From Nemertoderma westbladi (Eukaryota > Animalia > Xenacoelomorpha): a stretch of 64,000 bases of DNA. The notes under the pieces are model-generated. The model was not told the origin of the DNA and did no database searches. It saw only the letters and a list, made by a program, of their open reading frames with translations. Numbering within the stretch: the stretch's first letter is position 1; each line of letters begins with the position of its first letter. Positions 1,506 to 48,000 of this stretch are shown piece after piece. Location of the stretch: contig JAUCBJ010007943.1 of NCBI GenBank assembly GCA_032718475.1, positions 61,046 through 125,045 on the forward strand. The letters run 5' to 3'. Made by a program: the position numbers and the translations under genes.

Positions 1506-1506
1506 T

Positions 1507-2970: not shown

Positions 2971-3114
2971 TGTTCATTGTTTGTTGCTCATCGGAAGCAT
3001 TAATATTTATTTCTCGTTGGGTTCTGTTCCCATCTTTCCAGGCTGGTTGTTTGTCTCTGTGGTCATATTGGCTTCCATCGCAATAATAGTTCCGGGAGTT
3101 TTGTTTGTTGTTGT

Positions 3115-7833: not shown

Positions 7834-7841
7834 CCGCTCCC
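7834..7841 (-). other. Polypurine tract (GGGAGCGG)
   Basis: Short purine-rich run directly abutting the 3' LTR on the minus strand. Confidence 0.65.
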
Positions 7842-7911
7842 AGAAAATGGGATTTAAGTCTATAAAATATACAAAATCACAGTTTCTAAAATATAAAAAT
7901 ACTCTAAACAG

Positions 7912-16054: not shown

Positions 16055-16590
16055 AAAGCCAAACGCTGGCAGACTACCACCAAGCCTAAATAAACTACCG
16101 TACGTGTAGATTCTGAAATAGTTAGTTAGCATGCGTTCTAACACGGTAGTACGACTTATTCTTTAAGAGGGGATTGACCTTACCGCTATGGCTGCCCCAA
16201 CTTACTAATGGAGCTTTATCAGACAAACTCTACACACGCAGCAATCTCTTCAGACCTAATAATAGCTAGACAACAATCCAGCCTACAAAATATCTGAGTA
16301 ATAACTATTACGGTACCTGAACAGACCACACAAACAAACACAGGCCAAAACGCTGGCAGACTACGATCAAGCCTAAATAAACTACAGTATATGCAGATTC
16401 TGAAATAGTTAGTTAGTATGCGTTCTAACACGGTAGTACGACTTATTCTTTAAGAGGGGATTGACCTTGCAGAATATGGCTGCCCCAACTTACTAACGGC
16501 ACTTTATCAGACAAACTCTACACACGCCGTAATCTCTCCAAACTCAACAACAGTCAGACAGCAGCTCAGCCTACAATTATCTGAACAATC
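16055..16590. repeat. ~290-bp diverged tandem duplication in the retrotransposon 5' leader
   Basis: aaacgctggcagactac...ggctgccccaacttactaa...agacaaactctacacacgc occurs at ~16061 and ~16348. Confidence 0.85.
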
Positions 16591-16869
16591 TGAGCAGGGT
16601 CACACGCCTTCTGCTCAATATTAGCCTACTAGTAAATAAAACCGACAGAAATAAGTAAACTATACAAAAGAATGAGGGGTGATCAATCCCTATTCCCCTG
16701 GCAGCCTACAATATACAATAGATCACAATCGAAATAATACTAAATGTACTTGTACAGCAGTACCGGTACCGGTGATGACAGTTAGGCCTACTGACCTACA
16801 GAAGTACCGGTTCAGTTTTACCGGTCACTACGGTATTTTGCAACCTTATTGCTTACTGCAATAAGATCG

Positions 16870-16880
16870 ATAACTGTTAC
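16870..16880 (-). other. Atypical primer-binding site GTAACAGTTAT, complementary to LTR 17622-17632
   Basis: Directly abuts the 5' LTR; no TGG (tRNA-CCA complement); perfect 11-nt inverted match inside the LTR. Confidence 0.7.
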
Positions 16881-18065
16881 TGTTCGCGCTTTTGAAGACC
16901 TTTAGCAGTTTAACCTGCCAAAATTTATATGTCTTTTAGTTAATTAACACACCTTTAGCATATGACAATATTTTATGCTAATAAACAAAACATTAGCCGA
17001 AGCCAGCCCATGCGCGATCATTCACCCGATGGATCTACACCCGGGAGGCTGAATTCGGATGCTTAGATTTTATTATTGCAGTGTAAGGTTGCAGTGTAAG
17101 CCTACTGTATTATTCGATTGATCGCTAATATGTAATTTCTGACAGATATTATTAACTTTCGGGAAATATTAACAGTTCCTTTAGGACGTGGCGCTCTATC
17201 TATTTAAACAGAGCTAGGACTTATACTAAACGCAACGATAAGGCTTATGATTAAAGTATAAGTCGCATTCTTTAGGAAATGCTTTGTTACCAGTCACATC
17301 ACACTCACAATCATGCACACTATTCTGCCGACCGTCAGTATATTTGATCACACATAAAGAGATCAGTAATTGACTCATGTAGGGTCTGCTAAATAACATT
17401 AGATTTAATACACACCACATTAATATAAATCGCAATTGTTATGTATAGCCGGTCTCTCTAACCTGTAGTGTATCAAGAAAATTGGGAAATTTGGGGGATT
17501 TATCCGTATTATCCAAAGAGCAATATTTCCATCAACAAATAGGTACAATTAATAACTGACGGTAAATAACAGTACAAACAATATGATTAGTGCAGTTAAA
17601 TTAAGTGAGGTAACACCGCCGGTAACAGTTATACTTTCTATAATCTAAGCAGTTTTTGCTAGAGTTGTTCCAAAAGCCGGTGTTATGGCGAAAAATGGGA
17701 ACACAACAACAGAAACATGTGACTACTGCTCTATACGAAGATACCAACTCCCTTATTCCACGAAGCTCCCGTTCAACACAGAGGATGAGCATAGAGATAG
17801 GAAATTCAGTTCAGTAGTGCTGGGATAGGTCGAAATCAACGCCTACGCAAATTCTATTGGCCGACACGAACAGCAAGGCTAAGGCAACCTCTCTAAGCTA
17901 GTTGGCCGATTAAACTGAGCCCAGATATCTCCGTACAGCACATCAGCCAATAAGCTGGTAGCTTGCACTATTTTAGTTATAAATCCCTTTGAGAGTATTC
18001 TAGCGACTGGGGGGGAACTGGCCAGCAAAGGCAAACGTATCAGTTATCCCACAAAAGCTTTTACA
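16881..18065 (-). repeat. 5' LTR
   Basis: 1185-bp copy upstream of gag on the minus strand; AATAAA on the minus strand near 17070. Confidence 0.96.
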
Positions 18066-20875: not shown

Positions 20876-23362
20876 TAGGGTGGTCCTTATTTTGAAAGGT
20901 TGGAATTTATCATCTCTGACCCCCTCAAATGTTTCCATTTCGTCAAAAAATATGACATGCGAAATTTTAAGCATGTACATCAAATATTAGAGGTAGCTCA
21001 AACACACTGAAGTTGAGTGTCTGGTCACCGATTGATCGTGCACGAAGAATATAATAGAGTTTGCTGATATGAAGGCTTCTTTTGTCGTACAGAGTTAATT
21101 TTAGGCTTATTTGAACCGCAGTCATCGATTTAGTGGGTGTAGTGTAGAGTAGATACCTTCAAAACAAGTGCTAAGCTAGTAGTTCTTGAGATATCACACA
21201 AAAGCTTAAGCCCGGCACAACTCATCAATCGATCATTCAATTGATTATGCCAAGGACATATTGAAATATTCGCATTTACATTTTGTAGGTCTACCTCCCT
21301 GCATCTTATTTCAGTTAATCTCGATTTTAGCATTGTCTAACCATTCAAAGCTATGTTTAATAAAAAAAAATTCATCACAACCCCATGGGAAATGCTTGCA
21401 CAAACATCACTAATTTGTGCCTAAGCGCCATTTGGTACGATATCAATAATTGGCCACAAAACTTAACTTTTGGTTAATTATATCTAGGAACTGTTCGTTT
21501 AATTTGATTTTTACTGATTTTAAGTGCAGAACCCAAAAATTGCATCTGATTTGTATTTTAAAATGATATGGTGCATGATATACAACACAACAATACTATA
21601 CTGTACTTCAAAGCATTTTAAGATACGGATTGATAGATGCAGAGATATGTACATCCAGTGACCAAAAGAGAACTAATATATGGGAAGAAGCTTTGCACAT
21701 ATGTATTATACATAATTAGGCAATGCTGATTCCAAATCTGATTTCAGATTTGCCTTACCACACACATCAAGTTTTTTCACAATTGCCACTTTGAGTTCAA
21801 AAACTTATTGCAAACGACTGTGATGAGTGGCGTAGATTCAAATAAGAATCAAATATGCTCAAAATCAATCCAAAACATTGAATGGAGCTTTGTTTATATG
21901 AATTATATTATATATTTTTAAACAATGCTGATTCCTAATCTGCTTTCATATTTGCCAAACTGCCATAGGATATCAAGTTGTTTTTTACAATTGCCAATTT
22001 AAGTTCAAATTACTTATCGCAAACAATTATTATGAGTGAAAGTAGATTCAATAAGAATAAAATACACCCCCAAATCAATCTACAACATATGCTATGGTAA
22101 ATCTGATAGCAGATTCACCATATAGATTGCATTGTTTAATATATAACAAAGCTCTTTTTCATGTTTTATATTGATTTGGAGCATATTTGATTATTATTGA
22201 ATCTACTTCACTCATCACAGTTGTTCGCGAGAAGTAATTTGAACTCAAATTGGCAATTGTGAAAAAACTTGATATGATATGGCAGCATGGCAAATCTGAA
22301 AGCAGATTTAGAATCAGCATTGTTTTCATTATATATAATTCATATAAACAAAGCTCCTTTCAATGTTTTAGATTGATTTTGAGCATATTTGATTCTCATT
22401 TGAATCTACATCACTCATCTTTGCGATAAGTTTTTTGAATTCAAATTGGCAATTGTGAGAAAACTTTATGGGGTAAGGCAAATCTGAAATCAGATTTGGA
22501 ATCAGCATTGTCTAATTTTGTATAATGCATATGTTCATAGCTTCTTCCCATATAGTACTCTTATGGTCGCTGGATGCACATATCTCTGTATCTATCAATC
22601 CTTTTAATATGCTTTGAAGTACAGTATGGTATTGTTGTATATCATGCACTATATCATTTTAAAATTCAAATCAGATGAGATTTTTGGATTCTGCACCTTA
22701 AAATCAGTCAAAATCAAATTAAACGAACAGTTCCTAGATATAATTAACCAAAAGTTAAGTTTTGTGGCCAATTATTGATATCGTACCAAATGGCGCTTAG
22801 ACACAAATGATGCTTGTGCAAGCATTTCCCATGGGGTTGTGATAAATTTTTTTTACTAAACATAGCTTTGAATGGTTAGACAATGCTAAAATCGAGATTA
22901 ACTGAAATAAGATGCAGGGAGGTAGACCTACAAAATGTTAATGCCAATATTTCAATACATCCTAGGTGCAATCAATTGAATGATCGATTGATGAGTTGTG
23001 CCGGGCTTAAGCTTTTCTGTGATATCTCAAGAACTACTAGCTTAGCACTTGTTTTGAAGATATCTACACCCACTAAATCGATGATTGCGGTTCAAATAAT
23101 AATATAATATAATAATAATAATATAAATTAACTCTGTACAACAAATAGAAGCCTTCATATCAGCAAACTCCATTATATTCTGCGCGCGCGATTAAATGGT
23201 GTCCAAACGCTCAACTTCAGGGTGTTTGAGCTACCTCTAAATATATATCATTTGTGCTCAAATTTTACTCAAGGTGTTTTTTTATCAGAAGAAAGGACTT
23301 GGGGGGTTCAGAGGAGAATTTCCACAACTTTTAAATTTTACATTGAAATAAGGACCACCCTA
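20876..23362. mobile_element. Non-autonomous hAT (hATm-like) foldback element with ~1.2-kb inverted arms
   Basis: Termini TAGGGTGGTCCTTATTT / AAATAAGGACCACCCTA; 8-bp TSD ATCTACAT (20868-75, 23363-70); mirrored ORFs 21130-21333(-) and 22883-23107(+). Confidence 0.92.
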
Positions 23363-27036: not shown

Positions 27037-30000
27037 GTAAGTAAATCTTTAAATAGCTGAATACAGGACAGCAGGAATAGAATAGGCCTACAGGCTGACA
27101 GGTGACAGAAAAACTTAATTTAACTTAATTTAAGAAAATTTAATTCAAAAATATGAAATAAGGCACAGCACCCAAATAGAAAATACATATAATAAAGCAC
27201 ATATTTTAAATACAGTTAGGAACACTGGTCACTTTCTGGCTGAAGCTCAGCCAAAAATTGTCCACATATTTACAGCCAGAAAGTGTCCGTGCAGCCACTA
27301 TTTGTCCTTCACAGGCTGCGATTATATTTCCGGACATATTTTGGCTGTAACTCCACTAGTACCCAAAGCAGAAGCTGGGCACATTTTTATTTTTAATATT
27401 ATGATAGTTATCCCAACGATGAGATTCTAATTCTCAAATTAATTTATACAGAATTTTATGGCGATTCTAATGGCATAATTTTTAGAATGCCAATGTTAAA
27501 ATTTCACTGCCGGTTTTCAAATGAAATTTAGCATTGTTTTCTATGGAGAAATTTCACTCTGAGAGCGTTTTCCGCGGACACATTCTGGCTGTAAATTGGA
27601 CATATTGTGACCAGTGTTCCTGACTGAAATAGCTGAATAGCGCAGACGTGTTATTTGGGTGTATGATAATGGAGGTCAGTCGGAAAGCAAAGCTTGTAGG
27701 AAACTGACCTACAGCGCTACAGGCTGACAGTGATGAAACAAAACACCTGTTTATTTATTTATTTATATATGACAGGGCACGGTAGCCTGGCAGCGTCAGT
27801 GTGTCAGTGCTTGGTACTCGTAGCTATACGTACGTAACCATTACTGGTACGGGTACCTACTGCATTACTGCATTAACAACAGGCCGAGGCCCGACGCCTA
27901 ATTTACCCCTACCCTATTCTGTATTCATAGCTGCATAGGCCTGCCAACCTGTAGGCCTAGGTGAGTTCGATTATTTGAAATTGCCTTAACCGAATATAAA
28001 ATATTTGTAGGTCATGAATTCTGCACCTCCAACATCAAATGATTCTACCGAGCCCGTTGCCCCAGTTACTGCCACACATACTATTACTGGTAATGTTGTA
28101 ACAGTTGGAGTAAAGAGGCCTGCCGAAGGTACTGGAGATGGGCCTGCAGTGAAGAAAATAAATATAACAAGTAAGTGAATCTCCTTGGTTTGTTTTGGTT
28201 CCAATAAAGGAATGATATGTGCTAAGTTAGAATGTAGGAGCTTCCTGGAATGATTGTATCGTTTTAGAATTTTAGATACAGTAGACTGTTAGATAACCTT
28301 CAACCATAGTATATAGCCTTGTAGTTATTATTTATATGTGTTTCCAAATAATCTTTAATCATTGGTTGGTAATTTCACCACGTTCTTATGTTTCATATGT
28401 ATTTTCAACATATTTCTTGTATTTTTTTTAGGACAACGGGTTGGTGTGTTGTACGTCAGAGAAATATAGGCGTAATAGGCCTAGCCCCCTTGGGAAGTAA
28501 CGCTTGTGTAGATTAAATTTTGTATGCATTACTTTTTTATGAAATACAATTATCATAATTGTAATGTGTAAAGTTTACCTTTCCTTTTGTTACTTCATCT
28601 GTTTAGTTTAAACTCGGTGTAATATATACAAACACTATATTTTATTGCCCACTGACTTACCTTGTAATTGTTTGTTTTAGTTCCCCCTGGACATGTGACC
28701 GAGGTATTCCCGGTTCCAAATGATGTTGTCGGATTTGTTATCGGTAAGGCCGGAGCCGGAGCAAAAAAGATTACGGCGGAGACCGGTTGCAGACTCCAGG
28801 TGGATCAATCATCCAATCCCGGAGGAGAGTACAAGAATTGTATTCTAGTTGGCGCCCCAGAACAGTTAGCGTGAGTGTAAATGATCTGTAGAACAATCTG
28901 TTGTATTTTGTTACGTTAGATTAGGTGACAAACATATTTAATTACTAATTCTAATTTATCGTATTTACTTACAGGTATATACTTCATTACACATATGCAA
29001 TGGTTTATGTTTTGAACCGAATATGTTATTATTTGTTTCTGCTCACAAAATAACTATAATTTAATATTCAGTGCGATTTTTTATTTTGTATATCACATTT
29101 TAATTGGGGTTTAAGGCTTTCTCCACGAATTTTCTCATTTTAATTTCACGCCAGCAATGGAAAGTAATGACTGAGATTATCGAAATTGTTTATTATCTAC
29201 AAAATATGATCGAATCTGAAATTATATTCCTGATTCCTGAATAACTACCACTACTTGGTCGAGCGAGCTCGGACATACACTTTCGGTTGCGGGTTTCAAC
29301 CGTTGTATTAATTGTTTAATAAGAAAGACACAATGATACTGACAATAATTTATATATTATGTAATGTAATAATGAGAATGAGACGCAATAGTGGAGCCTA
29401 GTTGAATGGAACATAATTAATTGCTTAACGAACTTCCGGAATTTATCACACTGGCTGCACTGGCTTTTTGTGTTGAAAAACTTGACCTACTAAACTTAAC
29501 AAAAAAAAAAGTTAAAACGAAATTAAATATATTAATTTTCGGTTTCGCTTTTCCCGTTCGAACCGCTATAATATTTTGCGGGATACCCTGTATAATTAAA
29601 TAATAATTTTTTCTCTTTTTTCCCGTTTTTTTGCTCTATTGTTAATGTTCACAATTGATATATTGACGTGTAAAATCTGTATCTCTGTCACACACAAGTT
29701 TGTAGTAACTTTCATCATACATTTATTATCCATATCCAGAGTAGTACCAACATTGCATAACATTTAATTTCTATTCACTGAGTCGGAGATATACCGAATA
29801 TATATCTTATATATACCGTATATATATCTTATATATACCGTAAATATATCGTATATATACCGTATATATATCGTATATATATCGTATATATACCGTATAT
29901 ATATCGTATATATACCGTATATATATCGTATATATATCGTATATATATATCGTATATATACCGTATATATATCGTATATATAGGTTTGATTTAGGGGTGT

Positions 30001-33000
30001 GCCGGATATCCGGCCGGATTTTGAGAAAAAAATCCGGTTCCGGCTCCGGCTGGATTTCCATTTCAACGAATTGTTAACAAAATTTACAATTAATATAAAT
30101 GTTCAAAAAAAACATAAAAATAAATGTTCTTTCAATTTCACACAAACTTAAATATAAGCAAATACAATGGAATACAATACAATTTTTTTGCTAGTTTGTA
30201 TCATCTCCATTATTCATATTTTGAATTATGATAAAGTCTACAGCAGAGCTATAATTTTATGACTATCTACAATCGACATGCTGAGCTGACTGACTACTTT
30301 TTTTGCCAAGAATATTTGTATTTGGTTGGGATCAGCCTCACTAACACTTAATTAATTAGTACAGGTATGCCCAGCCCATATACTAATTATAACTAGCCAA
30401 TAATTATTATGTTGTCCCAGCGCACAAGCGTTGATGTTAGTCAGATCTAGGTAGGTTTGTTATAAAATGAGATTAAGCTTACCACCGTGAATGACCAGAC
30501 CAGTTTATGTAATCGACGGCCAATTTAGAAACTCTAGTAAATACAATTTAACTCAGAGAGTATAAAACAACTACAGAGATTATTACTTCGTTTTATTTTT
30601 CAATTTGCACTTTATTTAATTTCATTTTCATATTTTACATTTTTACATTTTACAACATCTAACCAATTAGCAAATATCAAAGCGGCGTAGGTTATGGTGC
30701 AAATTCCTATGGTGATATATAACAAAAATCCGGCTTTGGTCTGAATTCCGGCCGGATTTTTTTACAAATCTGGCTCCGGTTCCGGCCTGGCCGGTTTGAA
30801 AAAGGTAAATCCGGCACATCCCTAGTTTAATTTAACTGAAACGGGTGTGGGGACTGGACACAAATCCCATCTCGGCTAATTTATATTTCGTCTAATTATT
30901 AATTACGGAAAGGGAGCAGGTTATATGTGCCAGTATTTCTAACCAAAACTAAATTAAATACAACAGATTATAGTTATATTTTTGGGAATAATCATCTGTT
31001 ATTATCATCAATTTTCCCCAGGAGAGGGATGAATTTCCCACTATTTGCCATAACAATAATATGAAGTGCGAATATATACGAAATCTCTATAAACACTTAA
31101 AGGCGTAAATAGATAATCACAACCTCATGAAGATGGATAGGTTATACAAAACAATTAATTATTATGTTTCGTACCGGTATCGGTATACAGTATGTATGTA
31201 TATGATATAGTATCGCCCACCAATCTATATACATAAATACAAATTTGAGATATACATACATACATACATACATGGCATATTTTTCTTGTATCTTATTTAT
31301 ATACGAAACCGCTACCTTTACGTGCCCCGTGTCAGCGCAATTTTTATTGTTGTTTTAGCAATTTTTGGTAATATTATGTAATTAATTCTCCATGTTTTTT
31401 TTTATTTCTTGTTATTTTATGGCCTGTTCTTCACTTCTTATGGATTAATTTGGTAGGCCGTTTTTAAATTAATCACTGATTTACGCATGTGTTGTGTGTG
31501 TGTAGTGTGAGTTCTATAATGAATTATGTTAAATATGATATTAATTATATATTACCCTATACGGCTTCTATTGAATAGGTCAATAATGAAAACTATAAAG
31601 GCCCATTTATACTCGGCCGTATGGGGATTGTATGGTAAGAAATTGTGATATTTGTCCGTACAGCAGTCATCAGGCGGCCGTACGGTTTGTTTGGTATCAG
31701 GTTTTGCCGTACGGCAATAATAGACCATACGGCCGTAAAAAAACTTTAGATTCCATACGGCACCGTACGGCCATATGGTGAGGCCGTACGTTGACCTCAC
31801 GGCCGCCGTACGACGTTGACCTCACGCCCCCCGTACGACGTTGACCTCACGGCTGTCGTACGTCCGAGTATAAATGGAGCTTTAGTCAATCGAGACTGAA
31901 TTTAATGTTGACGTTTTTCTCCCATTTTCCCATTCGGTTATCTATCATAGCCCTACTCAAACTTTTAGTATTTTTAATACCAATATTGGATAATAACATG
32001 TTCCAAATATGGTTGGCCGATGATCTTATTAAAATATACCGTGTTAACGGGTATCGAAATATTGTGTGTCTATAATTTATGTACATTTTTTATTTTATAA
32101 GTTTATATAATATTTTTAATATATAATATATATATATAATATTTTTTATTTTAATATTTTTTTCACAAGTACATCCTCCCTCTGTTTGTGATATACTGTT
32201 GCAGTTTTGCAGATCTTAGTGTATCTAATACATTTTTCTATTTAGTTTTTAGTATCCAAATAGCAACATTTCCATTTTGCGCATCTGAAGGCTACAAGCT
32301 ACCTCGGAGATTAATGATATTGTTTCCTCAGTATTGTTTTTGTTCCCTATATATAGATTAGCGCGATCGGCCATAGCCCAGGTTATTGGCCGGGCCACAC
32401 AAGGGGCGCCTATGACTATAGAGATTTTAATTCCTGCTACTAAAGTTGGTCTTGTAATTGGCGGCCAAGGAGCTACAATTAAAAACATAAAACAAACGTC
32501 GGGTAAGTTTATTCAGTTGGCTACGGATGGTCTCAGCAACTCTGCATGCAGATATCTGCTATGCCATAAAGACTTATGTATTTATTTATGATTTTATTTA
32601 GTTAAAATTTTTCCATTGGTTATAAATAATTATTTTTTTGTATCTGAGTGCTTATTTATTAACAAAATAGTTATTTAAGTGGGTTAGGTGTGAGGGTGAG
32701 GTATATATTTTCATCTGTAATCTTTTTTTTATAGTGATTGCAATTAATTGGTATTCTAAAAATTGCGATACAGGTGTTAAATATATAGGTGCACATTGTA
32801 CCTGGTGCTGGTACAACAATGTTTTTAAGGTTAAGTTCTGAATTTTTTACTTTTTTTTAACTGACATAGTCATTTGTCAAGTTATCCTTTTATAAACTGC
32901 ATGTGATTAGATAATCATTTAATTAGTATTAATTATTGTATATTTAGGCTACTTATAAAATTATTAGTAAGATAACTAGTAAAAAAATTCCTTTATAAAT

Positions 33001-36000
33001 TTGACGTTATATAAATCTCTCAATGATTTTCACATTTCTATATTAATTAATATGATATTATTTTTTTGTAAATAATATATAATATACATAATCAGGTCTA
33101 TGTATTTTGTACAATTTCTCATTTTTAATAAATGTTCATTATGCATTTTTTATGAGCTATTTATTTTTTCACGATGATGGGTGCATCATTAAGTAGCTAT
33201 AAGGTAAAGGTTACCTAAAGAAGTGGCTATTTTGACAATTTGACCAATATTAACAAACGCCAATGTTTATATCTATACTTCGGTTTGTTTCAATATGTAC
33301 ATCACGGTGTGTAATGTAAAGTAGCATTCTATCCCAATGTAGGATTAATAACCGAGCGAAGAGAGGAATGGAAAGGAGACGAGTTTGCATTCTCGAAAAG
33401 TGCTTTTTTTAAAAAATATTGTTACCGTGTTAAATTAACATGTTTTATTAATAAATTAAATTAATATAATCGATAAATTAATTTAACATCCAATGGTATT
33501 GATGTGATGATTATGACTCGTACAATTATATAAGTTATACTTTATACTGTTCGTGTATTATTATTTCAACCATTAATGTTATACATTGCGTGACAGAGTT
33601 TAGTAGCATACACAAATTGGAAAAATAGCATATCAAACCAAATAGATCTAATCGATTAGAGTTTTGTGTGTGCATCGCATGATAGTTCAACGTTTTCTTT
33701 TCATTTTGACATAGTTCATTTAAATATTTGTTTTGAAATAAATTTAATATCAGAATTTATGAAACATTCGACAGCTGTTATGCAGTAATATGTTGGGGTG
33801 TTTATAAATTATGCCACAAATTATTACAACAGCAGCCCCATTTCCTTCCCGTAATGTTTGGTATACAAAACATCGATCCTGTTATACCTGCGGATAACTA
33901 TATTTGATTCCAGATCGAGTTAACCGAGTTATAAAGTTTGTCCGTAGCACATTTATGAATCTATCCAGTTGCTGTCCGAGATTACTTTTCAGAAGATTCA
34001 ATAATTATATCCACCCACACAACAACCCACAGGTGAATAATACCAAACCATTTTACATATTGATGATATTTATTTAGGTGCGCAAATATTCCTGCAACAG
34101 TCGCCAACAGATGTACCAGGTGCGGATAAACCTCTGAGGATTACTGGCGACCCAGAAGCTGTTCAAATCGCCCAAAATATGGTCGTCGATATATTACAGT
34201 TAGTAGAAATAATATGTTATCTTCTTATTAATTGGTTATATTGTCCTCAACTAAAATAGAATACTGGACTATATTATATTCTAGCCAAACTTGAGTATTT
34301 TATCCAGTAATCCAAGTTTAATAGTTGATACTGGAACTTGAGTGATTAAAATATTAATGATAATTCTGCAAACCCTGTTGTAGATGTAGACCAGTACTAT
34401 ATAATTAAATACATTGGAGTCGAGCTGATAATGCTTGGGGCGAGGTTTGTGGCAGAGCTATTCTATATGTGATCGACGATTATTTTTCGCCGTGTTGTTG
34501 GTTTTGGGTGTGCTTGTAGTGTTTGTATGTCGGCAATATTCGATATCGGGGTTAACCCAGCACACGCCTATGTGTCAAATCATATGTCATATGTGACAGC
34601 CAATCACTGGGAAAGTGTATGGCTGAGCGTGATATCTGGGGGCGCTATAATGCTGGGCCCGCCGGAACTTCGCCGTGTGGACCAGCCTGCGCACAATCTT
34701 TTGCTGGCGGAGTGGCTGTCTCATGGAGTGAATAAGAATGGTGGACAGCCCATGACTTTATTGAGACGCCTCTTAAAGGATCTTGAAGATGAAGATGATC
34801 TAGCAAATGTGTTAGGGAGTTGTTGAGGCGCAATTTTTCGACAAGCCGCACAGCATTCTTAATATATGTGTAATATATATGCAGCTGCAATGCAGCATGC
34901 CGATAATAGTAGTTGTAGGGGAAGTAAAGAACGTGGTTGGGTAGTTACGAAGTGTTTAGCCTTTGGAGTTAGTGGGAGCCTCCCTGCAGTCATAGTGCAG
35001 GTAACGTACTCGTCGAACTGCCAATTGGTAAATTATGAATTGAACACAGTTGGTGTTGCTTACCTTGTAACGGTAAATCGCTAATCGCATTGAAAATTAG
35101 GTTTGTGAATGTGAGGCGTATATTATCTACATGGGTATAGTGATTGTCAAACAGCACAAAGTACAATAATTATTTTATTTTTATATTATTATTTCACACG
35201 ATAGTAAAATATGAAGGTAGTGAGTGTAATTGTTTTAGATAAAAAGTTAAAATTAATAGATGCCATAATTTGCAATAAAATTGTGAGTTAAAATATTTTA
35301 CGTAAGTACACATAAAGTTAAATGTTATATTATTGTCGTAAAATAAATGAAAGGAATATTCGAATACCGTACCATAATTGTAATAAATTGTAACATATTA
35401 TATAATTATCGTAAAAAATTGATTTGGAGTCGCACTAAGTTTAAATAAGTAAGTTTAATGAATAAAATATTGTCATTCGTTAGTTGTCGCACAAAATAAC
35501 AAATAAATTAACACAACAGTAACAGATAAATAAGTAAATATATCTATTTCCAAGTTAAGTGTCAGACTAAAATATACTATGATTACTTAAATGATAACAG
35601 TTAGTGGGAGGTCGCACTAAATATAATTAGTTAATTTATATTAAATTAATTAATTAATTTAGATCCCGTAAGTGATATGCCAGGCGTAGTGGTGTTGTCA
35701 TCTGTGGCATCATGGTGGAAATTGTAATGCCAAACGGCGATGTTGTTTTGTGAGGTGGCGTATATTTGATTAAAATTAGGCTTTAATTATAAATGAATTG
35801 TTGTGGGGAGGGTGACGGCGAATTAAATAAATGTTATAGTACATTATGATAATGCTCTCCATAGTGAAAAATATCAACCGCCCCTATTGGGGCTCGAACT
35901 CGGTACCTAGGTTTCAAACTTCCGGTTATCATCAGCCGAGTGTGTGTCCTAAGACCACTGAGCTACCAGGGCGGTAGAAGATTTATTCACTTTGGAGTGG

Positions 36001-39000
36001 GCTATCATATATAGGCCTTTTACAGTCACTCATAGGAAAGTACAACGTTATTCCCGTGCTCTGCCAGAAATGGCAGTTAGGCTTTTGAAGCCTTGTTAAG
36101 CAGACCATTTAACGGGTGTAAACGCTACGCCGACAACCGACAGCCAACAACCAACGCCGACAACCATTATTAAAGCTAATTATTGTTAATGAATTATTAA
36201 TTGAGGGAAAGGAACAGGTTACAGTGGAAGGTTATTCTAACCAAAACAACATTCTTAAAAATGCAGCTGCAATGCAGCATGCCGATCCTAGTAGTAGTCG
36301 GCGTAGCGTTTACACCCCCATTTAACCTATCTTTGATGCTGGTGCACGTTACATCTTTGGTAACTTTCGGTAACCTGTGTCTGTACTCACGGTATTATAG
36401 GCCTCTGTCGTTTCTAATGTTTGAATTTGGAACTGTCAGTCAGTCAGTTACATTATTTCTTACCGGTATAACCTGGTCTATAAGGGTCGTACCAGAAAAA
36501 TACCTATATCGTAATTGCCTATTCCACTCACCTTTACCAAAATCTGGTCCCGCCTACTGACCGCAGGAAATCCTGCCCTTGTCTGCTTTGCTTTATGCCT
36601 ATTATTGCAGTCTGCTGAACTGAACAGTTTAAGAACTACCGGTAGGCTACCGTTTCATTCTGTCTGATTGTTACATCACATCTCCATGATATATCGATAT
36701 ACAACGATGTTGTCTAGACGACTTATTCTCAAGCAGTTTCGCCCTGTTGGTAACCGTAGATTCTACTCGACAACGCAGCCCAGAAGTTCCGCCCATCCGA
36801 CAACCAAACTCTTTATAAACAACGAATTCCTGGAGTCCAAAACCACCAAATGGATCGACGTGCACAACCCCGCGACGAACGAGGTGGTGACCCGGGTCCC
36901 GGAATCCACCCAATCCGAGATGGAAGCTGCCACCAACGCAGCCGTCGAGGCCTTCAAGGACTGGTCCCAGACCACCGTACTGACACGTCAGCAGATAATG
37001 TTCGGATTCCAGGCCCTCATCAAAGAGAACATGAAGAGTCTAGCGGAACTTATAACGTTAGAGCAGGGTAAAACTCTAGTAGACGCGGAAGGGGATGTTG
37101 CTAGAGGATTGCAGGTTGTCGAGCATTGCTGCAGTGTTACAAGTCTCCAGCTAGGGGAATCTATGCAGGGGATCAGTCGAGATATGGACTGCCATACCTA
37201 CCGGTACCCGTTGGGGGTGGTTGCAGGGATCACCCCGTTCAACTTCCCCGCTATGATCCCGTTGTGGATGTTCCCGATGGCCGCCGTCTGCGGCAACACC
37301 GTGGTTATGAAGCCATCGGAGAGAGACCCGGGCGCCTGCATGCTATTGGTTGATTTGGCGCGTAGGGCGGGTTTACCTCCAGGGGTGGTTAACGTAATAC
37401 ACGGCGCCCACGCCGCGGTTGATTACATCTGCGACGCGCCGGCGATTCGCGCCATCTCGTTCGTGGGTTCGGACACGGCGGGCCGCTACATCTACGAGCG
37501 AGGCAGCCGCAACGGGAAGCGAGTTCAGTCTAATATGGGCGCCAAGAACCACGGGGTTGTGATGCCGGACGCGAACAAGGAGAGCACGTTGAACCAGTTG
37601 GTGGGGGCGGCGTTCGGGGCAGCGGGACAGCGGTGCATGGCCTTGAGTACGGCGATATTCGTCGGGGAGTCCAAGGATTGGATACCGGAGTTGGTGGAGC
37701 GCGCCAAGAAGCTGAAAGTGTCCGCGGGTAATGAACCGGACGCGGATCTGGGTCCGGTTATCTCGCCGGCTGCTAAGGAACGCGTGTGTGGGTTGGTGCA
37801 GACCGGGGTGGATGAGGGTGCCGATCTGTTGTTGGACGGGCGGGGTGTTACCGTGCCGGGGTACCCCGAGGGTAACTTCGTGGGTCCCACCGTGCTGAAT
37901 AAAGTGAAACCTGGGATGAAATGTTACAAAGAGGAGATATTCGGACCTGTGTTGGTTAGTTTGGAGGTTGACACATTGGACGAAGCTATCGATATAGTAA
38001 ACGCTAATCGTTATGGTAACGGGACCGCGATCTTTACCCGCAATGGTGCCACGGCTAGGAAGTACACCCACAGCGTGGATGTGGGTCAGGTAGGGGTTAA
38101 TGTGCCCATCCCGGTCCCATTGCCTATGTTCTCGTTCACGGGATCGAGGGATTCCTTCGTTGGGGATACCAACTTCTACGGTAAACAAGGTATCGCGTTC
38201 TACACCCAGACTAAAACCGCCATACAGGTGTGGAAGGAGGAGGACGCTACTGTAACGCGACCAGCCACTTCTATGCCCGTTATGAAGTAGTTCGTTAGTT
38301 ATATAGAATAGGAACTACCGAATTAAACGCCTCGCGTTTCTTCTCACTAATTCCATCGATCGTTGTCAGCTTGTCACCAACAGCGCGCTAACTGTAGTAG
38401 ATTATGTTGCTCGCCAATTAAGGAAATCTATGTTTAGAGTAGAAAGTTATTTATTAATTAATTATATTTGATTCTGTGTATAGTGTTGTAATTAACTGTT
38501 ATTTGTTTTGAAGTTTCCAATTGTCGCATTTTCTATTTGCGTCAGTTTTGTGCTACGATGTGATTGACCTTGCCCTTATTACATTGGAATTTGAGATTCA
38601 TTATAGTCATTGTTTTATTGTTTGATAATGACCCCCTCCCACCCCCACCCCGCTTCTTGGCTCATTGTACCATATGGTACTTTTTGTTGTTGTACTTTCT
38701 TGTTTGTTTCTTGGAAGTCAACATTTTGAAATTCTTACTGCACCAAAAAGCGAATAAGTAGAAAAAAAGTGTAAGATACATTTTGGGTGGACTATATTGA
38801 ATTGTAATATTTAAAAAAAAGTTATTTTTGACGCCCCTTAAGCAGCCAAATTTACATTTTTGACTTAAAATGCAACTCATTTGTTATGCTTTATTTTCAG
38901 AAGTTGTAACCTGTTTTTTTGGAATCAGCATGGCCGATTACGTGAAAAAATTCGAGCAGAATTTCAGGAAATCACCGCGCTATTTTTCAAAATAATTTTC

Positions 39001-42000
39001 AAATTAAAAAAAACGCACTGTTTTTTTTCGTAAAAAATGTTATAAGATGGACAATTTATTGCAAAAAACTGCTCGAATTTTATTATTGCGCACTCTAGTA
39101 GCTTTAATTTGATACCAAAAACTTACAAATTGGTTGATGAATGGCGGAGGAGTAGTGTTTTAAAAATGAAAAATACCATTACGTGATTATTGCCTTTAAA
39201 GTTTGAACCTTCCCGCGCAAAAATTGTCTGTTAATATGTGAGAATGTCTGTCAATAATATAGCAACACAAAACCATGCTAAGATTATTGCTATGGGGTTT
39301 TCGTGGTCGCTGATTTCATTTCTGAGGTCAGAGTTTAATGACACCAGGTTAATCTGTTTGTCTGTCTGTCGGTCTTTCTGACAACCGACAATCTGTCCGT
39401 CAAATATAAGAAAAGGGCACACCATCTAGCTAAAATTATAGTTCTAGGGGGTTTTCCTGGCCGCAGAATTCATTTCGAGTGTCAGATTTAATCATTTGAT
39501 GGCTTCCAAATTGTCTGTTTGGCTGTTGGTTATATTTTGACGGACAGACTGACTGGCATGCAGACAGAAACGACGAGGCAAAATTTGAATAATGACATAA
39601 GAAATGAAGTCACCGACCCCGAAAACCCATATAGGGAATTTTTTAGAAATATAGTGTGCTTTTTATTGACGGACAGACATACTGACAGACAGACCGACAT
39701 TAAAACGACAGACAGCCATATCTCGAGAAGTAAGACAGATTTGGCTAAACGGTTTTCATATTTGGAATCTTGATAAAAATCTGCTCTAGATGAAAAAAAA
39801 AATTTGAAAAAAAAATTGAAAACCAGTCCCCCCCCCCCCCCCCCCCCCCCCTTATTCTCCTTACTCCCCCTTATTTCTCCCTCCTCCTCCGTGGGTGAGC
39901 CAGGATTTTTATTTTTGATTTCATTCTTTAGCTACAAACGGTTAAAAACGGTGTCTCCGCCAATATTACACCAGTTACAGCGCAGTTATTTTTCAATCTT
40001 ATTATAGTGATTTGTTGATACTAGTAAAAAGCTGATTGGATCGTGCAAGGGTTCCAAATATGTAAAAATATTTGAATTTGGTTTAAATTTGGAAATAGCT
40101 GAGATATGGGCATTCGAATGTGGCATGTATTTGCTTAAGGCGTCCTTTATAACAATATACAGACAAACGGATAAAACCGATTTTGCCAGTACTGCCGTTG
40201 TTTGGCAATACACCCTATCTCAAAATTTTCAAAAAAAATTTTATTTGACCAATTGGGGTAACTTGACACGCTCTTTTCAATGAAACTAAGAAAAGTGGGG
40301 TGTTCCTTTCACGAAATCGGACTTTTTCAATCTTAAAACACCCCATGGCAGCATCTTAAATCAACAGCTGCGAGGCAAAACACCCCATAGCTAAATTCGA
40401 CCATATAGGGTGCTTTGCCTTGTTAACTCTGTCGACCAAATAACCCTATCCTTGAGTTAGGGTTTTTTGCCTTGCGCTTTACTTTTAAGCCAATCAATTA
40501 GTTAAGGAATTGACCAATCAGAAGTAATATCCTTTGTCATTTAATATTTATTTACACTACTTAAAGGTAACTCTGTCTGGCGGGTAATTAATTTTAGTTA
40601 TTTTAATTTGACCTGGCGCAAATTAATTTACCCTATCTAGTTATATTGATTTTTGTTCGGAATTTACTCTTTATTACAACCAACAATGTACTAACAGTCT
40701 TGTAAGTTTTAAGGGGAAATGGAGTTTGACAATAATGACGAGGAAGAGAATCTGGATACGTTTTTTGGATTTGTTATTATATCAGAAGGAGAAATAGGAA
40801 CTGGGACAGATGGAGTAGTTGGACGCCGGGCCTGGGATGGGTGATGTAGTGTTAGGTACTGGGGAAACGGAGGGTGAAGAAGATGGAGCTCTTGTTGGAA
40901 CTGGGGAAGGTGGAATGGTTGTTGGAACTGGGGAAGGTGGAATGGTTGCTGGAGCTAGGGGAGGTGGAATGGTTGCTGGAACTGGGGAAGGTGGAATGGT
41001 TGTTGGAACTGGGGAAGGTGGAATGGTTGTTGGAACTGGGGAAGGTGGAATGGTTGTTGAAACTGGGGAAGGTGGAATGGTTGCTTGAACTGGGGAAGGT
41101 GGAATGGTTGTTGGAACTGGGGAGTGGAATGGTTGCTGGAACTGGGGAAGGTGGAGTGGTTGTTGGAACTGGGGAAGGTGGAATGGTTGTTGGAACTGGG
41201 GAAGGTGGAGTGGTTGTTGGAACTGGGGATGGTGGAATGGTTGCTGGAACTGGGGAAGGTGGAATGGTTGTTGGAACTGGAGAAGGTGGAATGGTTGTTG
41301 GAACTGGGGAAGGTGGAGTGGTTGTTGGAACTGGGGAAGGTGGAATGGTTGTTGGAACTGGGGAAGGTGGAATGGTTGTTGGAACTGGGTTAGGTGGAAT
41401 GGTTGTTGAAACTGGGGAAGGTGGAATGGTTGCTTGAACTGGGGAAGGTGGAACGGTTGCTGGAACTGGGGAAGGTGGAATGATTGCTGGAACTGGGGAA
41501 GGTGGAGTGGTTGTTGGAACTGGGGAAGGTGGAATGGTTGTTGGAACTGGGGAAGGTGGAGTGGTTGTTGGAACTGGGGATGGTGGAATGGTTGCTGGAA
41601 CTGGGGAAGGTGGATGGTTGTTGGAACTGGGGAAGGTGAAATGATTGTTGGAACTGGGGAAGGTGGAATGGTTGTTGGAACTGGGGATGGTGGAATGGTT
41701 GTTGGAACTGGGGATGGTGGAATGGTTGTTGGAACTGGGGAAGGTGGAGTGGTTGTTGGAACTGGGGAAGGTGGAATGGTTGTTGGAACTGGGGAAGGTG
41801 GAGATGTGGTTGGAACGGGGGAAGGTGGAGTGGTTGTTGGAACTGGGGAAGGTGGAGATGGGGTTGGAACTGGGGGAGATGGAATTGTTGTTGGAACTGG
41901 GGAAGGTGGAATGGTTGTTGGAACTGGGGAAGGATGATATGTGTTTGGAACGATGGAAGGTGGAGTGGTTGTTGGAACTGGGGAAGGTGGAGATGTGGTT

Positions 42001-45000
42001 GGAACTGGGGAAGGTGGAGATGTGGTTGGCACTGGGGGAGGTGGAGATGTGGTTGGAACTGGGGATGGTGGAGATGTGGTTGGAACTGGGGATGGTGGTT
42101 AAATTAATACCTTTACTTTTTGTATTTATTTGGGAAGGAATTAATTTTACTCACCTCATCATTCATCATTTTGACTTCTTGTTGACATGGCAATACACCC
42201 CAATTCCAGCATAGCAAGCTCTAAACTAATAATACGTGAAACAAAATGCTCTACAAAACATGCTGGCAGAACAAAAAATCACTGATTTTATACTAGTTTC
42301 TTTGAAACCAGAACCTGGTTAAACACCCTATCTCCAACAACTCAGCTTACATTGAATGGCAAAACACCCTATAATTTTATTTCATCACTTTAATCCCTTT
42401 TTCGTCATCTCTCACCATCTATTCTATGTAAAAAATCTAAGTTAGCCTGTTAAGTTCCCTTAGGACCCAATATCAGCGATTTCTCACAATGTCTTCAATG
42501 TTGAATTAGGGGAAAGTAATGTTTTATTTAACTGTAATTAATGTAATAAAATAATTTTTCCGTTGCAGAAGATCGGATGTAGATCAGACGGCCAACAACG
42601 CGAAGAGTTCCAAACAGACTCCCAGAGCCGGGGGTAGCCAGGTCTTTCCTTATGGTGCTGGAGCTGCAGGTCACGGTCTAGAGGTCAGTGGACATCACTT
42701 TATCAGTGGATACAGTGAATATCAGTTATTTTCATCAGTGGATACCGCAAACAGAAATTTCTAGACCGCTCACATAACTTTATAGCCCGCGGACTCAACT
42801 TTGTAGTCCACCCACACTACTTTATACTCCGCTCACGCAACTTTATAGTCTTCACACGCTACAATAATCTTGTAATTGTCTATTAGCCAATCAGAAGCGA
42901 GTATTTTAGGTGACCGACCACAGAAATGGAGAAAGCTCATCTAATTAGCTTTCAGTTATGTTATAGTATCCATTGCAATACTGCAGTGTATTTTAAACAT
43001 ATTAAACATAAAGGGTTTCTAATCCGACTACCCATATTGGCTACACTTAAATTACGTAACGCAAGCGAGGAGGCCAGGGTGTCCAACTTGTCGTGACAGT
43101 TTGTGATATACAGAGATTATAAATTCAGCAAATTAATCATGTATAACTATTTGTTTATATGTTAATTTATTTGCTTCAGGTTTTATAACCGTATATCACC
43201 TTCTGGGACAGGCGATAATCTGTTTATCATGTATATTCGACCTTATTGCGCTGATAAATTTTGTGAGCTACTTTTGTATCTTTCACGTTTGGGGAAACGC
43301 AGAGCCCACTGAAACAAACACACCCTTGCAATCCCCCCCAACCCCCCTCCCTCCCCAGTTGTCCGAACATTAAAAAATATTGTAGAGAGAAAGGTTCAAT
43401 TTCATTTAATATTAAGTCAGAACAAGCAATTATTACTTTTAGACCTAGATAACTAAATTATAATTGATGGCAATTGTTGCTCTTTTCGTGTTTTGACTGT
43501 CTTTGATGTTTAGCAAGTGTTGCTGTCTGTCACCGGAAGCATCTGCAAATCTCTTTCTATTATTGGGTTTGCTGAAACTCCTCTTATGACGAATTTAGGC
43601 ACTGCAGTAATAATACTGTACTGTAGTACAGCCAGTGTGTGAGCATTTTTTGTGATAAAACTCAAAATAATAATTTTAATAAAAAAACTCAAAACTCAAA
43701 AAAATATAAAAAGAAAAAATGAATAAACCCATAAAAACTCTAATCAATATTCATTTAAAAGGGTTAAGAAATTTCACTTAAAAATATTTCATTTTAATTT
43801 ACTAGCTATGTTAAAATAAAAAAAACTAGCAGTTCTAGAACATTAAATTTTTTATTGTATTTATGTTCTAGAATAGTATATAATACTTTTATTTTATATT
43901 GTTCTGCAACTCCTCAATGTTTCCATTTTATCAATGATAATATATGATTTATAAATGTAGTGCTATACGGAACTCTAACTGAAAAGTTGATAAATTGAAG
44001 AGTTGAAGAAAGTTGAAGAGTTGAAAAATTTTCAAAAATCGTTCTCACAGGCTATACTACAGTATAGTGCGGACTTCAATATTAGCTCGTGGTTGACAAC
44101 TGTTATATTCCTAATTAGCCACAAAAGTAAAGTTGTTAAATCAGTTGGGAATGTATATATAAATTCTTTCAACTTTGGGAAGACTGTGCAAAAAATAATG
44201 TCAAAACACAACAATAAATGTGTAAGTTCTCGAATTTTGTGTTAGGAGTGTTAATATAGTAGTTACATTGGGTATTTTGGCTTTAGCTGGGTGATATACA
44301 GTTATATCACCCTATTGTTTAGCCAAACAGATTTGAGAATAAGCGAGAATACATGATAAACAAACGTTTCTTAATTTCTTTTCAGTTTCCCATTCCTAAG
44401 TTTGCCGTTGGTATGGTAATTGGTTCTCGCGGAGAAACTATTAAAAGACTACAGGAAGATTTCGGTTGTTCAGTTCAGTTTACAGAAACCCCGGACCATG
44501 TCCCAGACAAAGTCTGTATTGTTAGGTGAGTTCTTAGATATTCTAACAGAACACCGCAATTAACTATGCTCACTCCATCTAACATAACCCCACATGAACT
44601 ATGCTCACTCCATTTAACATAACCCCATATGAATTATGCTCACTCCATTTATCATAACCCCGCCACATGAACTATGCTCACTCCATCGAACATAACCCCA
44701 CATGAACTATGCTCACTCCATCTAACATAACCCCACATGAACTATGCTCACTCCATCTAACATAACCCCACATGAACTATGCTCACTCCATCTAACATAA
44801 CCCCACATGAACTATGCTCACTCCATCGAATATAAGCCCACATAAACTATGCCCACTCCATCGAACATACCCTCACATGAACTATGCTCACTCCATTTTA
44901 CATAACCCCATATGAACTATGCTCACTCCATTTAACATAACCCCATATGAACTATGCCCACTCCATCGAACATACCCTCACATGAACTATGCTCACTCCA

Positions 45001-48000
45001 TTTAACATAACCCCACATGAACTATGCCCACTCCATCTAACATAACCCCATATGAACTATGCTCACTCCATCGAACATAAACCCACCCCACATCTATATG
45101 TGCACTATTATATTACAGGGGTCCACACATGCCCAAGATCAACGAGGTTGCTAACATTGTCCGCTCCCTGGTCGACCAAGCACACGAGAAAGACAAAGCA
45201 AAGTTGGGACAAAGCCAAACTGGTGTGGGAACTGGTGGATCGAGGCCTAGTGGGTCGTCTACTGGTCTGCCAGTTGCATTCCTTCCTCTACCCGCAGCTC
45301 GTACCGGTCTTGTTATTGGTAAAGGTTCGTTGGTATATAAATAAACTTTAAGTCACTGGTACTTATATTTACCGGACCGTTTATAATTATTGGAACTTAA
45401 TTGACACTTTGTGGTGGTTTATGTTACCGTAAGTAAATCACTAATTGTTGGTAAGTGGTACATTTTTCTGTGACACAAATAGTTGGTGTAATATTAGTAT
45501 ATTTTTCGTTATAGGTGGCGACACAATAAAACGTATTAACAGAGACACCGGGGCATTCGTTGAGTGTGAGAACAACGCGGTAGCCCCACCTGGACACAGA
45601 CTGTTTAAAATCGTTGGGAGACCCGATCAGATAGAGCATGCGTGTCGGTATGTTGGGTGGGATAAACTACACCGATAGTAGGTTCATTACGTATAGGCTA
45701 TCTGTGACCATGGATAATACCATAGCTCTACTCCTTTACAACTACTCCGGAAATATTTAAAAACAATCTTTAACTCACTCTTTATATTTAGGAAACATTT
45801 AAATCATTCATATAATTATCATAGAAAGTCTATATTTCGTGTAAAGTTTTTAAATTCCTCGGAAAAAAACGTAGAGTTAATTAGTTTGAAATCATTATGT
45901 AAATATTCCTTTTGTTTAGGATAATGCGGGAGATTGCCCAAGTCCCTCACCCCCCGGGCCCCCCTGGTCCCCCTGCCCCCTTCTCTACGGGCGGCCCCCC
46001 GGCCCCGCCCGCAATCAACGCAGCCTACCCCCCATCCGCGCCCCCACACCCGTTCGGAGCGCCCCCTCCCGGTAAGTTGATATATTACTAGTTTTTCTAC
46101 AATTTATTGGCATCTTGGGAGAATGAGTGGGCTGTATATTATTATAATTATAGTTGGGCGCACTTTAGCAAAGTTGGCAGACTTCCAACCTGGAGGTCAC
46201 CAGTTCGATCCCACCTGGACGTAATTATGACTTTGTATTTACGTAATAGTTAAGTTGATGATAATTACCAAAGGTTGTGCGGTGAATGTATTTTATACAT
46301 TTGTATACTTTATAGTACGGCTATTATTATTAATTACCTTTAATAGGTTGTTAATGGAAACAAATTTCCATAAAAACCTTCCCTTAGTCATATAAACGTA
46401 AAATTATTGTCAGTTTCCGGTATTGATTCTATTGTGTGTTATTTAGTTGTAAACTTATCGTATTATTTTCCCTAGGCATTCACCTGGCGCCCATCCAGTA
46501 TCCCCCACCGGGAGCGCCCCCACACTCCCACAGCGGCCCCCCTCCGGGCCACTTTACTCCCATGGGGGCCCCGCCCACGCTTCTGGTGACCACGATCCCC
46601 CGCCCCCAACCGCCGCCCGAGATCAAAGTTCCCGAGCAGTGGCACCCCCCTACTGCGGTGTACCACGCCCTCCCCCAGCCCAGCGCGGCGGCCCCCCTGG
46701 GCAGCTACTCCCAACCGCCCCCTGGGTTTGCCGCAGCCCCCGCGCCCCAACCGGCCCCCGTATCGGCTCCCTCGGTCGTCTCAGTGCCGCACCCCCGTCC
46801 GCCCCCCGTGGCCCCCGCCGCGGTGCCCCCCGCCGCCCCCACAGCCGCCCCCAAGGAGGACCAGAAGGGTGTGGAATACGCCGCCCAGTGGGCCAAGTAC
46901 TACCGGGAGCAGGCGAACAAAGCGGAGGATGAGTCCCGTAAGAACCTGAGTCGAGGACAGCCGGACTACTCGTCGGCCTGGAGCGAGTACTACAGACAGC
47001 AGGCGGCCAAGGCTGAGGAGGAGGCGAGGAAGTACGAGGCGAGTAAGGTCGCGGCCCTGCAGACCTCCCATATGGGGGTGCCGGCCCCGACCTCGGTGCC
47101 AGGGCAACCGGACTACACAATGGCCTGGGTGGAGTACTTTATGCAGCAGGTGAGGCTTTCCGTCTATACCTTTATTTTTGTTTTCATGTTGACTTTATTA
47201 TGCCATCATATTGGTATCATAGCTGCTATGGAATCGAGTTCAATTGAACCAGAGCGTGATGTCGTATTGGCCCTCGTGTAACTTTGATATTTACGGACAC
47301 GAACAATGTGTGAAGAGACGTGGGGCGTGGGATGTTGACGTTTCGTGACAATTTGTGACGAAAAGGAGAGAGTGCTGGGGGGGGGGGGGGGGGGGGGGTT
47401 ATTAAAAGTGTTGGGGAGGGGGATTTATTAAAAATATATTTAATACTAAAATAATTACTCCGATTGTTTTAAAACATTAATTGTGTCTCTGGTTATATTT
47501 GTTGCACTCACTCTTTTTTTTTATATATTTATTGTCGTTTATAGGCGAATAAAGCGGAGGATGAGGCTCGCAAAGCTAAGGCCGAGGGCCGATCGGCCGA
47601 ATTTGCTGAACAATGGGCCGTCTATTACAGGAAGCAAGCAGATAGCGCAGCAGTCAGTGCAGGAGGTCAGTATGGTAGTTATAGTCATATCATAGATAGT
47701 TATGATAGCTATATATGCTGCATATGGTGTATAGTGTAGCTATATGTGTTATGATAGCTACACTGACTGATAGTTGTTGGACAACACGATGGTTGTCCAT
47801 AAACGTGGTCTTCCACCTTTGGGAGTCCATTGCTGTGCCATTGCTCATGTACCAGCTGAAGTTCAATATCGGTGCCATGAATCTTACTGACATGGACAAC
47901 ATGGACATCTTCTACCGCAAAACTCTGCGTGGCCTAATTCATCTCGGACCATATGTGAATAACTCCACTTTGCACAAATTATCTGGATGCAGCCCATTAT

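Follow-up and report, generated by a model that had tools for sequence, protein, structure and literature searches.

A 292-bp repeat in the genome of Nemertoderma westbladi carries a type I hammerhead motif between the A and B boxes of a tRNA-derived Pol III promoter. The copy described here lies in a stretch of 64,000 nucleotides (contig JAUCBJ010007943.1, positions 61,046 to 125,045 of the forward strand, assembly GCA_032718475.1), which we call the window and to which all coordinates refer. The element is best explained as a non-autonomous retroposon that is copied by TPRT from a long, uncut, rod-like RNA and whose hammerhead would cut in dimers only; to this chain, taken as a whole, we give a probability of about 0.45. 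As far as we searched, both the nested layout (hammerhead between the A and B boxes) and a predicted lock on the ribozyme are new: no natural hammerhead between A and B boxes was found in the full-text literature, which was mostly open-access, with Repbase and the invertebrate-retrozyme supplement of PMC7229834 outside its scope.

An earlier note on this DNA had described the locus as a hammerhead built into a 109-nt Pol III transcript and had proposed a tRNA-scaffolded SINE or retrozyme. On direct reading, all of its hammerhead, box, terminal-stem and U5 motifs are present at the minus-strand positions that it gave. The unit, however, is larger than had been thought, and the tRNA part is probably not folded as a tRNA.

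Materials and Methods

Copies were assessed from contigs of five public runs of this organism (X1, X2, X3, X4 and X6), two of which, X2 and X3, come from one sample. X6, possibly an RNA run, also contains further repeats of this region and was left out of any judgement on expression. Summed contig depth is not a copy number, and variants are given as shares of that depth, unphased and within one species. Published systems were compared by the passages that describe them.

Extent and genomic position of the element

The window copy occupies 35785-36076 on the minus strand, bounded by edges of contig depth and by a 9-bp flanking duplication, and no second copy was found within the 64 kb. Depth sets in at 35783-84 and ends at 36075 in four runs, and loose contig ends beyond 36075 are common to X4 and X6. 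The 9-bp direct repeat, at 35776-84 on the 3' side of the element and 36077-85 on the 5' side, is likely a target-site duplication, seen at the window copy alone. Near the ends, a search for terminal inverted repeats of at least 7 bp gave none. By folding, the 5' end of the copy forms a 6-bp hairpin (36061-36076, minus strand), and this end is probably about 22 nt short compared with other copies.

The element lies within an intron of a plus-strand FUBP-like gene (28668-47278), as placed by KH-domain pieces at 28668, 32289, 34041, 44323 and 45445 and by a FUBP_C domain at 46427. Nested in the same intron is ALDH6A1 (36707-38290, plus strand), which is intact and intronless and is possibly a retrocopy; its closest relatives are molluscan, with 76-79% identity and none closer among 7,995 candidates scored. 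The ALDH6A1 start codon at 36707 is 732 bp from 35975, in agreement with the distance of about 730 bp noted before, and the element is antisense to both genes. Its position near ALDH6A1 and within the FUBP intron looks incidental; a role at ALDH6A1 has no support, this being one insertion among many.

tRNA-derived frame

On the minus strand the sequence from 35972 to 35880 keeps the register of a tRNA exactly over positions 1-72, with the anticodon and variable arms replaced. Positions 1-7 correspond to 35972-66, so that seven bases precede U8 (35965); the T loop is at 35898-92, positions 66-72 are at 35886-80, and position 72 (35880) stands opposite position 1 (35972). The A box (tRNA positions 8-19) is at 35965-55, the B box is at 35899-91, and a run of five U follows at 35871-67. 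A combined A and B box pattern matched none of 200 shuffles but also missed the window itself, whose spacing or letters fall outside the pattern, so the two boxes rest on direct reading and on the tRNA register. ARAGORN called no tRNA at its default settings; with relaxed settings (-ps80, introns) it called 35878-35973 together with a second, probably spurious gene.

The element is very probably of tRNA origin. A folded tRNA scaffold, as had been proposed, is doubtful, because the T stem has only 2-3 pairs, an anticodon stem is absent, and the acceptor pair 2:71 is seemingly broken in about 73% of depth by a variant at 35881. A spliceable tRNA intron was considered and ruled out, there being no anticodon stem on either side. 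What stands of the earlier SINE or retrozyme proposal is a tRNA-derived, high-copy, retroposon-like repeat. Like tRNA-derived SINEs it has A and B boxes in a tRNA-derived frame, and it has interspersed copies with a target-site duplication, the latter from the window copy alone. Its 5' end, however, is not at the tRNA head, since this copy and many contigs reach about 100 nt further upstream. A few of the contigs listed end at 35974-35981, near the expected Pol III start, and the internal boxes, if used, would also give rise to a short Pol III transcript of some 105 nt. The loose ends are mixed and A+T-rich, with no clear tail among those listed. The element shares no sequence with the 3' end of the RTE element in the window; the end of the other LINE lies outside the window.

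Hammerhead motif

The hammerhead occupies 35941-35898 (minus strand). Stem I has 6 bp (35941-36/35903-898), CUGAUGA is at 35935-29, helix II has three pairs (35927-25/35919-17) closed by U.U, and GAAA at 35915-12 leads into the palindrome of helix III at 35911-06; the cleavage triplet is GUA, with a predicted cut between 35904 and 35903. A type I descriptor (core and three helices) matches only here in the 64 kb, which together with the exact tRNA register bears out the placing of a hammerhead between the two boxes. On dinucleotide shuffles the same descriptor gave 0 matches in 300 in its strict form and 0.017 per shuffle when relaxed. A hammerhead pattern that takes account of sequence only and ignores pairing gave 7 matches vs 5.3 expected, no more than chance.

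In both the descriptor and an alignment to Hammerhead_HH9 (RF02275), CUGANGA, GAAA and UH occur in type I order with stem I. The HH9 model aligned to a 126-nt stretch over all of its 77 positions, with 21.3 bits and E 0.0022, but this is far below its gathering score of 52, and the match was lost in scans of 292 and 1001 nt. Rfam gave no match at gathering score, and at E<=10 the 1001- and 292-nt scans returned no hammerhead and just two unrelated weak matches. The alignment puts the B box on the 3' strand of stem I and the HH9 bulge, so that one stretch fills both roles.

Helix III is short with a palindromic loop, as defined in PMC4209133. The helices are of canonical size, and while the motif is type I with a palindromic helix III, as had been claimed, it is not of the minimal type. 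Helix II is its weak part. The pair G10.1-C11.1 is described as highly conserved in hammerheads (PMC4209133), and here a 4-bp helix II with that pair is replaced by three pairs and U.U. Its pair probability is 0.05 or less in all monomer folds, and it is absent from the free dimer fold of the 44-nt motif. The weak helix II and the low Rfam score both speak against an active ribozyme.

Predicted folding of monomer and dimer

The predicted fold of the whole element contains a long rod, 36011-35968 against 35884-35843 (minus strand), which encloses the tRNA frame and includes the U5 run. The terminal stem (35975-68/35884-77, minus strand) and the U5 "terminator" are thus the inner part of a longer structure. 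A TATA-like stretch (36013-07) at the 5' arm of the rod varies among copies. Against 200 shuffles the whole element has the better fold in every case (z -2.91), and the 121-nt core alone is not better folded than shuffles (z -1.37). All 12 common alleles of other copies together gave -84.5 kcal/mol, against -79.3 kcal/mol without them, a value matched by 30 of 1000 random sets.

Within the window copy a remnant of the D arm (35957-48, minus strand) is predicted to lock the ribozyme by pairing with 35911-35901, which covers helix III and the cut site. The lock has a probability of 0.97, stem I has 0.03, and the lock duplex of -12.0 kcal/mol was equalled by 43 of 5000 shuffles. Stem I prevails (0.90-0.93) in just 2 of 16 allele sets, both with all three common alleles (35900, 35939 and 35923); since these together undo the lock, it may not hold family-wide.

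Rod-like RNAs generally gain energy as duplexes. The unconstrained fold of two copies lies below two monomers by 10 kcal/mol for the window copy and by 15 kcal/mol with common alleles, and it contains an 8-bp palindrome helix and stem I between the molecules. This is the scaffold of a double hammerhead, and the dimer state that the earlier note had expected is therefore the predicted minimum-energy state of two copies. By these predictions the cut site would be masked in the monomer by the D-arm remnant, and the dimer would hold a double-hammerhead scaffold.

Copies, ends and joints

Contigs aligning to 35765-36100 at 85% identity or more numbered 1368 in X2, 911 in X3, 714 in X4 and 80 in X1, and in all just 2 ran over the ends of this interval. 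The search for copies, boundaries and target-site duplications that had been suggested thus gave 1,368 contigs in one DNA run, edges at 35785-36076 and a 9-bp duplication, and the feature is almost certainly a high-copy dispersed repeat. Compared with the 109-nt unit, copies are longer by about 100 nt on the 5' side and by 20-85 nt on the 3' side.

Summed depth over 35849-35920 is five to ten times that of the 5' part. Many copies terminate at 35830-35849, where loose ends accumulate, as they do at 35784; their flanks are mixed and A+T-rich. At 35947, where there are also loose ends, agreement with the consensus is just 0.43-0.49, which suggests other heads without the roughly 10 bases after the A box. 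No step in depth is seen at the predicted cut site. Five of the 15 joints listed (30 in all) are inverted, and one falls exactly at the cut site (35837/35904), which with about 30 joints could be chance. No head-to-tail joint was seen among these 15 of the 30, nor in 11 rows of letters between joints, in contigs short enough to hide arrays.

Other copies in contigs of X2, X4 and X6 extend about 20 nt beyond 36075 and beyond 35783. Both extensions carry a nearly identical motif of 12-13 nt, one base apart in length, and they differ outside it; candidates for the motif are a terminal redundancy, an old tandem linker, or insertion into another repeat.

The family core had no match in metagenomes, and the A box-hammerhead-B box layout had 22 loci there, with paired stems in 0 of 22. 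Among viral contigs none of the 120 loci listed (about 150 estimated) passed and the layout pattern was not found, and a scan of prokaryote genomes gave no match. These collections are poor in animal DNA, so the blanks say nothing on the range of the family.

Variation among copies

At 12 positions other copies differ from the window copy in at least 30% of X2 depth. Two pairs among them are compensatory. The stem I pair 35939:35900 is U-A in the window copy; among other copies G makes up 91-97% at 35900 and C makes up 55-73% at 35939. The rod pair 35989:35865 is likewise U-A in the window copy; in the others G accounts for 94-99% at 35865, and the share of C at 35989 is 62-70% in three runs but 2% in X1. 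The alternatives at both pairs are therefore C-G or U.G, unphased. Two such pairs among 12 variants has P ~0.0002 (200,000 draws of the same type, 44 pairs fixed beforehand). Three common alleles (35992, 35844 and 36011) remove mismatches from the rod, and another of the 12, at 35881 (changed in about 73%), disrupts a rod pair that is also the 2:71 acceptor pair. Covariation had been suggested as a check on stems I and II: stem I has one compensatory pair (unphased), while neither helix II nor helix III has any.

These variants lead us to infer that stem I and the long rod enclosing the tRNA part are under selection. The compensatory rod pair joins the flanks and the rod swallows the U5 run, and hence the copied RNA is longer than the proposed Pol III transcript; the RNA under selection would start upstream of the tRNA and continue past U5. 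A 109-nt Pol III transcript cannot in any case template a 292-bp copy. The view of the unit as a transcript of 109 nt ending at U5 is accordingly not supported as it stands; the element has 292 bp, with the terminal stem and U5 enclosed in the rod and a compensatory pair joining the flanks.

The 12 core bases are without common variants, as the proposal of a conserved core would have it, but this is expected by chance in 60% of cases (P 0.6), and core conservation was dropped as evidence. Variants of C3 make up at most 0.1% of depth in X2, X3 and X4, and 22% in X1, from one contig. The U5 run, 32 nt after the cut site, has no variant listed.

Proposed mode of spread

We propose that the element spreads as a non-autonomous retroposon through a borrowed, probably Penelope-type, reverse transcriptase. 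Its template RNA would start upstream of the tRNA part, from read-through or an upstream promoter, and would read through U5. In lone RNAs the D-arm remnant would cover the palindrome and the cut site, and such RNAs would survive for copying. Where two RNAs meet they would exchange strands to give a helix III of 8 bp and the two stems I, and a cut between 35904 and 35903 would separate the A and B boxes. In this way the ribozyme would act as a concentration-dependent processing step or self-limiting switch. Taken by itself, that the hammerhead cleaves seems to us a little more probable than that it does not.

A Penelope partner is suggested by the ragged ends, the inversions and the hammerhead itself, all of which match Penelope traits (PMC8557442, bioRxiv 10.64898/2026.07.22.740005), and we put the chance that such a partner supplies the reverse transcriptase at even. 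Varied 5' and 3' ends, the lack of a clear tail among the loose ends listed and inversion in 5 of the 15 joints listed fit traits given in PMC8557442. None of the 40 window ORFs scanned gave a Penelope or GIY-YIG match; two LINE-type reverse transcriptases are present.

Alternative explanations

The element may be a relic in which a tRNA became fused with a retrozyme or a Penelope terminal repeat and which spreads like a SINE, its RNA structure still mattering and its ribozyme dead. The weak helix II without G10.1-C11.1, the insignificance of core conservation and the absence of a depth step at the cut site are all in keeping with this, as is the report that 8 of 9 tested Xenopus retrozyme dimers did not cleave (bioRxiv 10.64898/2026.07.22.740005). 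A dead ribozyme, however, fits poorly with a double change that preserves pairing in stem I (unphased) and with core bases that are all intact, C3 variants being rare outside X1. On this evidence we regard a relic as not very likely.

A classical retrozyme of the Sm-alpha kind is unlikely. It would have tandem masters elsewhere, transcribed by Pol III, cut to units and circularised, with the window copy as offspring of a circle; copying from a circle would explain both the hammerhead in mid-copy and the copying of sequence upstream of an internal promoter. The length and A+T content of the element fit retrozymes (PMC7229834), solo retrozyme copies are common (bioRxiv 10.64898/2026.07.22.740005), and the recurrence of the 12-13 nt motif in loose ends past both element ends would suit old tandem units. 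The two end extensions, however, are unlike outside this motif, a U5 run with no variant listed follows the cut site by 32 nt, and the 15 of 30 joints listed include none head to tail, with the reservation that short contigs may hide arrays.

A non-autonomous DNA transposon bearing a small ribozyme gene under Pol III (the 9-bp duplication would make it Mutator-like, the end hairpin Helitron-like) would copy upstream sequence easily, and an adjoining MITE also has 9-bp flanking repeats; the absence of a terminal inverted repeat of at least 7 bp near the ends, together with ragged ends, 3'-biased depth and inversions among copies, makes it very unlikely. Vault RNA genes have paired ends, like the element. 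That it is such a host gene, given the likeness of its A and B boxes and U5 to those of vault RNAs (PMC7904556 for the boxes), or that it regulates ALDH6A1 or FUBP, can hardly be entertained for a high-copy dispersed repeat with a flanking duplication, without an Rfam vault match and antisense to both genes, whose transcripts it thus cannot cut in cis; vault RNA itself was rejected by its high copy number and lack of an Rfam match, on comparison with PMC7904556 and PMC8704543.

Comparison with known systems

The closest known system is the Sm-alpha element of Schistosoma. Sm-alpha, of tRNA-Gln origin (PMC2770079), does join Pol III boxes with a hammerhead, as had been stated: in the wording of a review it has a tRNA-derived Pol III promoter and then a hammerhead, and needs tandem copies (PMC6765202). 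Sm-alpha and Sj-alpha resemble the element in their tRNA-derived boxes, type I hammerhead and high copy number (PMC6765202). As far as that review describes it, however, the Sm-alpha hammerhead follows the promoter, whereas here it lies between the boxes with the B box within stem I; a cut in our element would split the promoter, and tandem copies were not seen in its short contigs. The element may work like a retrozyme or like Sm-alpha, with a layout that departs from that of the latter.

Metazoan non-LTR retrozymes are also about 300 bp long and low in G+C, with a type I hammerhead of canonical size and a palindromic helix III (PMC7229834); self-paired RNA, duplications of more than 4 bp and a proposed Penelope partner are further likenesses (PMC7229834; bioRxiv 10.64898/2026.07.22.740005). 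Retrozymes are defined by tandem units and circular RNA and are said to lack promoters (PMC7761336), whereas the window copy has A and B boxes and is single; tandem units of 150-450 bp were not seen, there being no head-to-tail arrangement among the listed half of the joints in these short contigs. Self-masking of the monomer, as predicted here, is ascribed in PMC7229834 to plant and not to most animal retrozymes.

Penelope pLTRs share with the element a type I hammerhead thought to act as a dimer, truncated and inverted 5' pieces, and short end extensions (PMC4209133, PMC8557442). Their minimal hammerheads have a helix II of 7-8 bp, in contrast to canonical helices here (I of 6 bp, II of 3-4 bp); moreover the element has a tRNA frame, and no link to a reverse transcriptase ORF was seen in the window. 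Helenus TRIMs, too, are short mobile repeats in whose middle lie Pol III boxes of tRNA origin, preceded by further sequence (PMC10886601). Animal Helenus, however, has 4-bp duplications, two LTRs with the boxes inside the LTR, a PBS and a PPT (PMC10886601), and our element has a 9-bp duplication and no second copy in the window. In that paper the word hammerhead stands in a reference title only.

Engineered tRNA-ribozyme chimeras place the ribozyme between the A and B boxes. They are made so that a ribozyme within a tRNA is transcribed by Pol III (PMC6257566), but they are artificial and cut other RNAs, whereas the element is natural and, by prediction, self-targeted. The family described here puts a hammerhead inside a Pol III promoter and lets one stretch double as B box and ribozyme stem. 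If it cuts, it would link tRNA SINEs with retrozymes and be a natural counterpart of the engineered molecules. It bears on two questions: what makes animal repeats retain hammerheads that on their own are hardly active, and by what means retrozymes, called promoterless, are transcribed.

A further reading joins these points: a tRNA-embedded ribozyme gated by dimerisation, whose cut brakes copy number through promoter loss or whose ligation swaps halves. If true, each cut would destroy the promoter of any daughter copy and so be a built-in brake, and ligation would produce hybrids whose 5' and 3' halves come from different copies. Such recombination at the RNA level would explain a single 3' half with several different heads. 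We hold this joint reading, which is built on the predicted folds, to be quite unlikely.

Other elements in the window

Next to the element, at 36114-36317, is a MITE-like element with terminal inverted repeats of 24 bp and 9-bp flanking direct repeats (36105-13 and 36318-26). It is high-copy in the runs, as judged from the part compared (36114-36250), and contains a 53-bp piece that is 98% identical to the RTE 3' end at 59719-59771. At the start of the window (1-5748, minus strand) is a non-LTR retrotransposon with a Ulp1 protease domain in the first ORF region, its endonuclease and reverse transcriptase split by one in-frame stop. A BEL/Pao-like element at 6649-17237 has a DUF1759 ORF (10856-14755) flanked by identical direct repeats with a spacing of 10,232 bp. 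A large foldback occupies 20987-23240; its several nested inverted arms are 85-98% complementary, and it has internal repeats of about 195 bp. At 48600-63000 a long 42/32-bp tandem array is broken by the RTE-type element (59719-61433).
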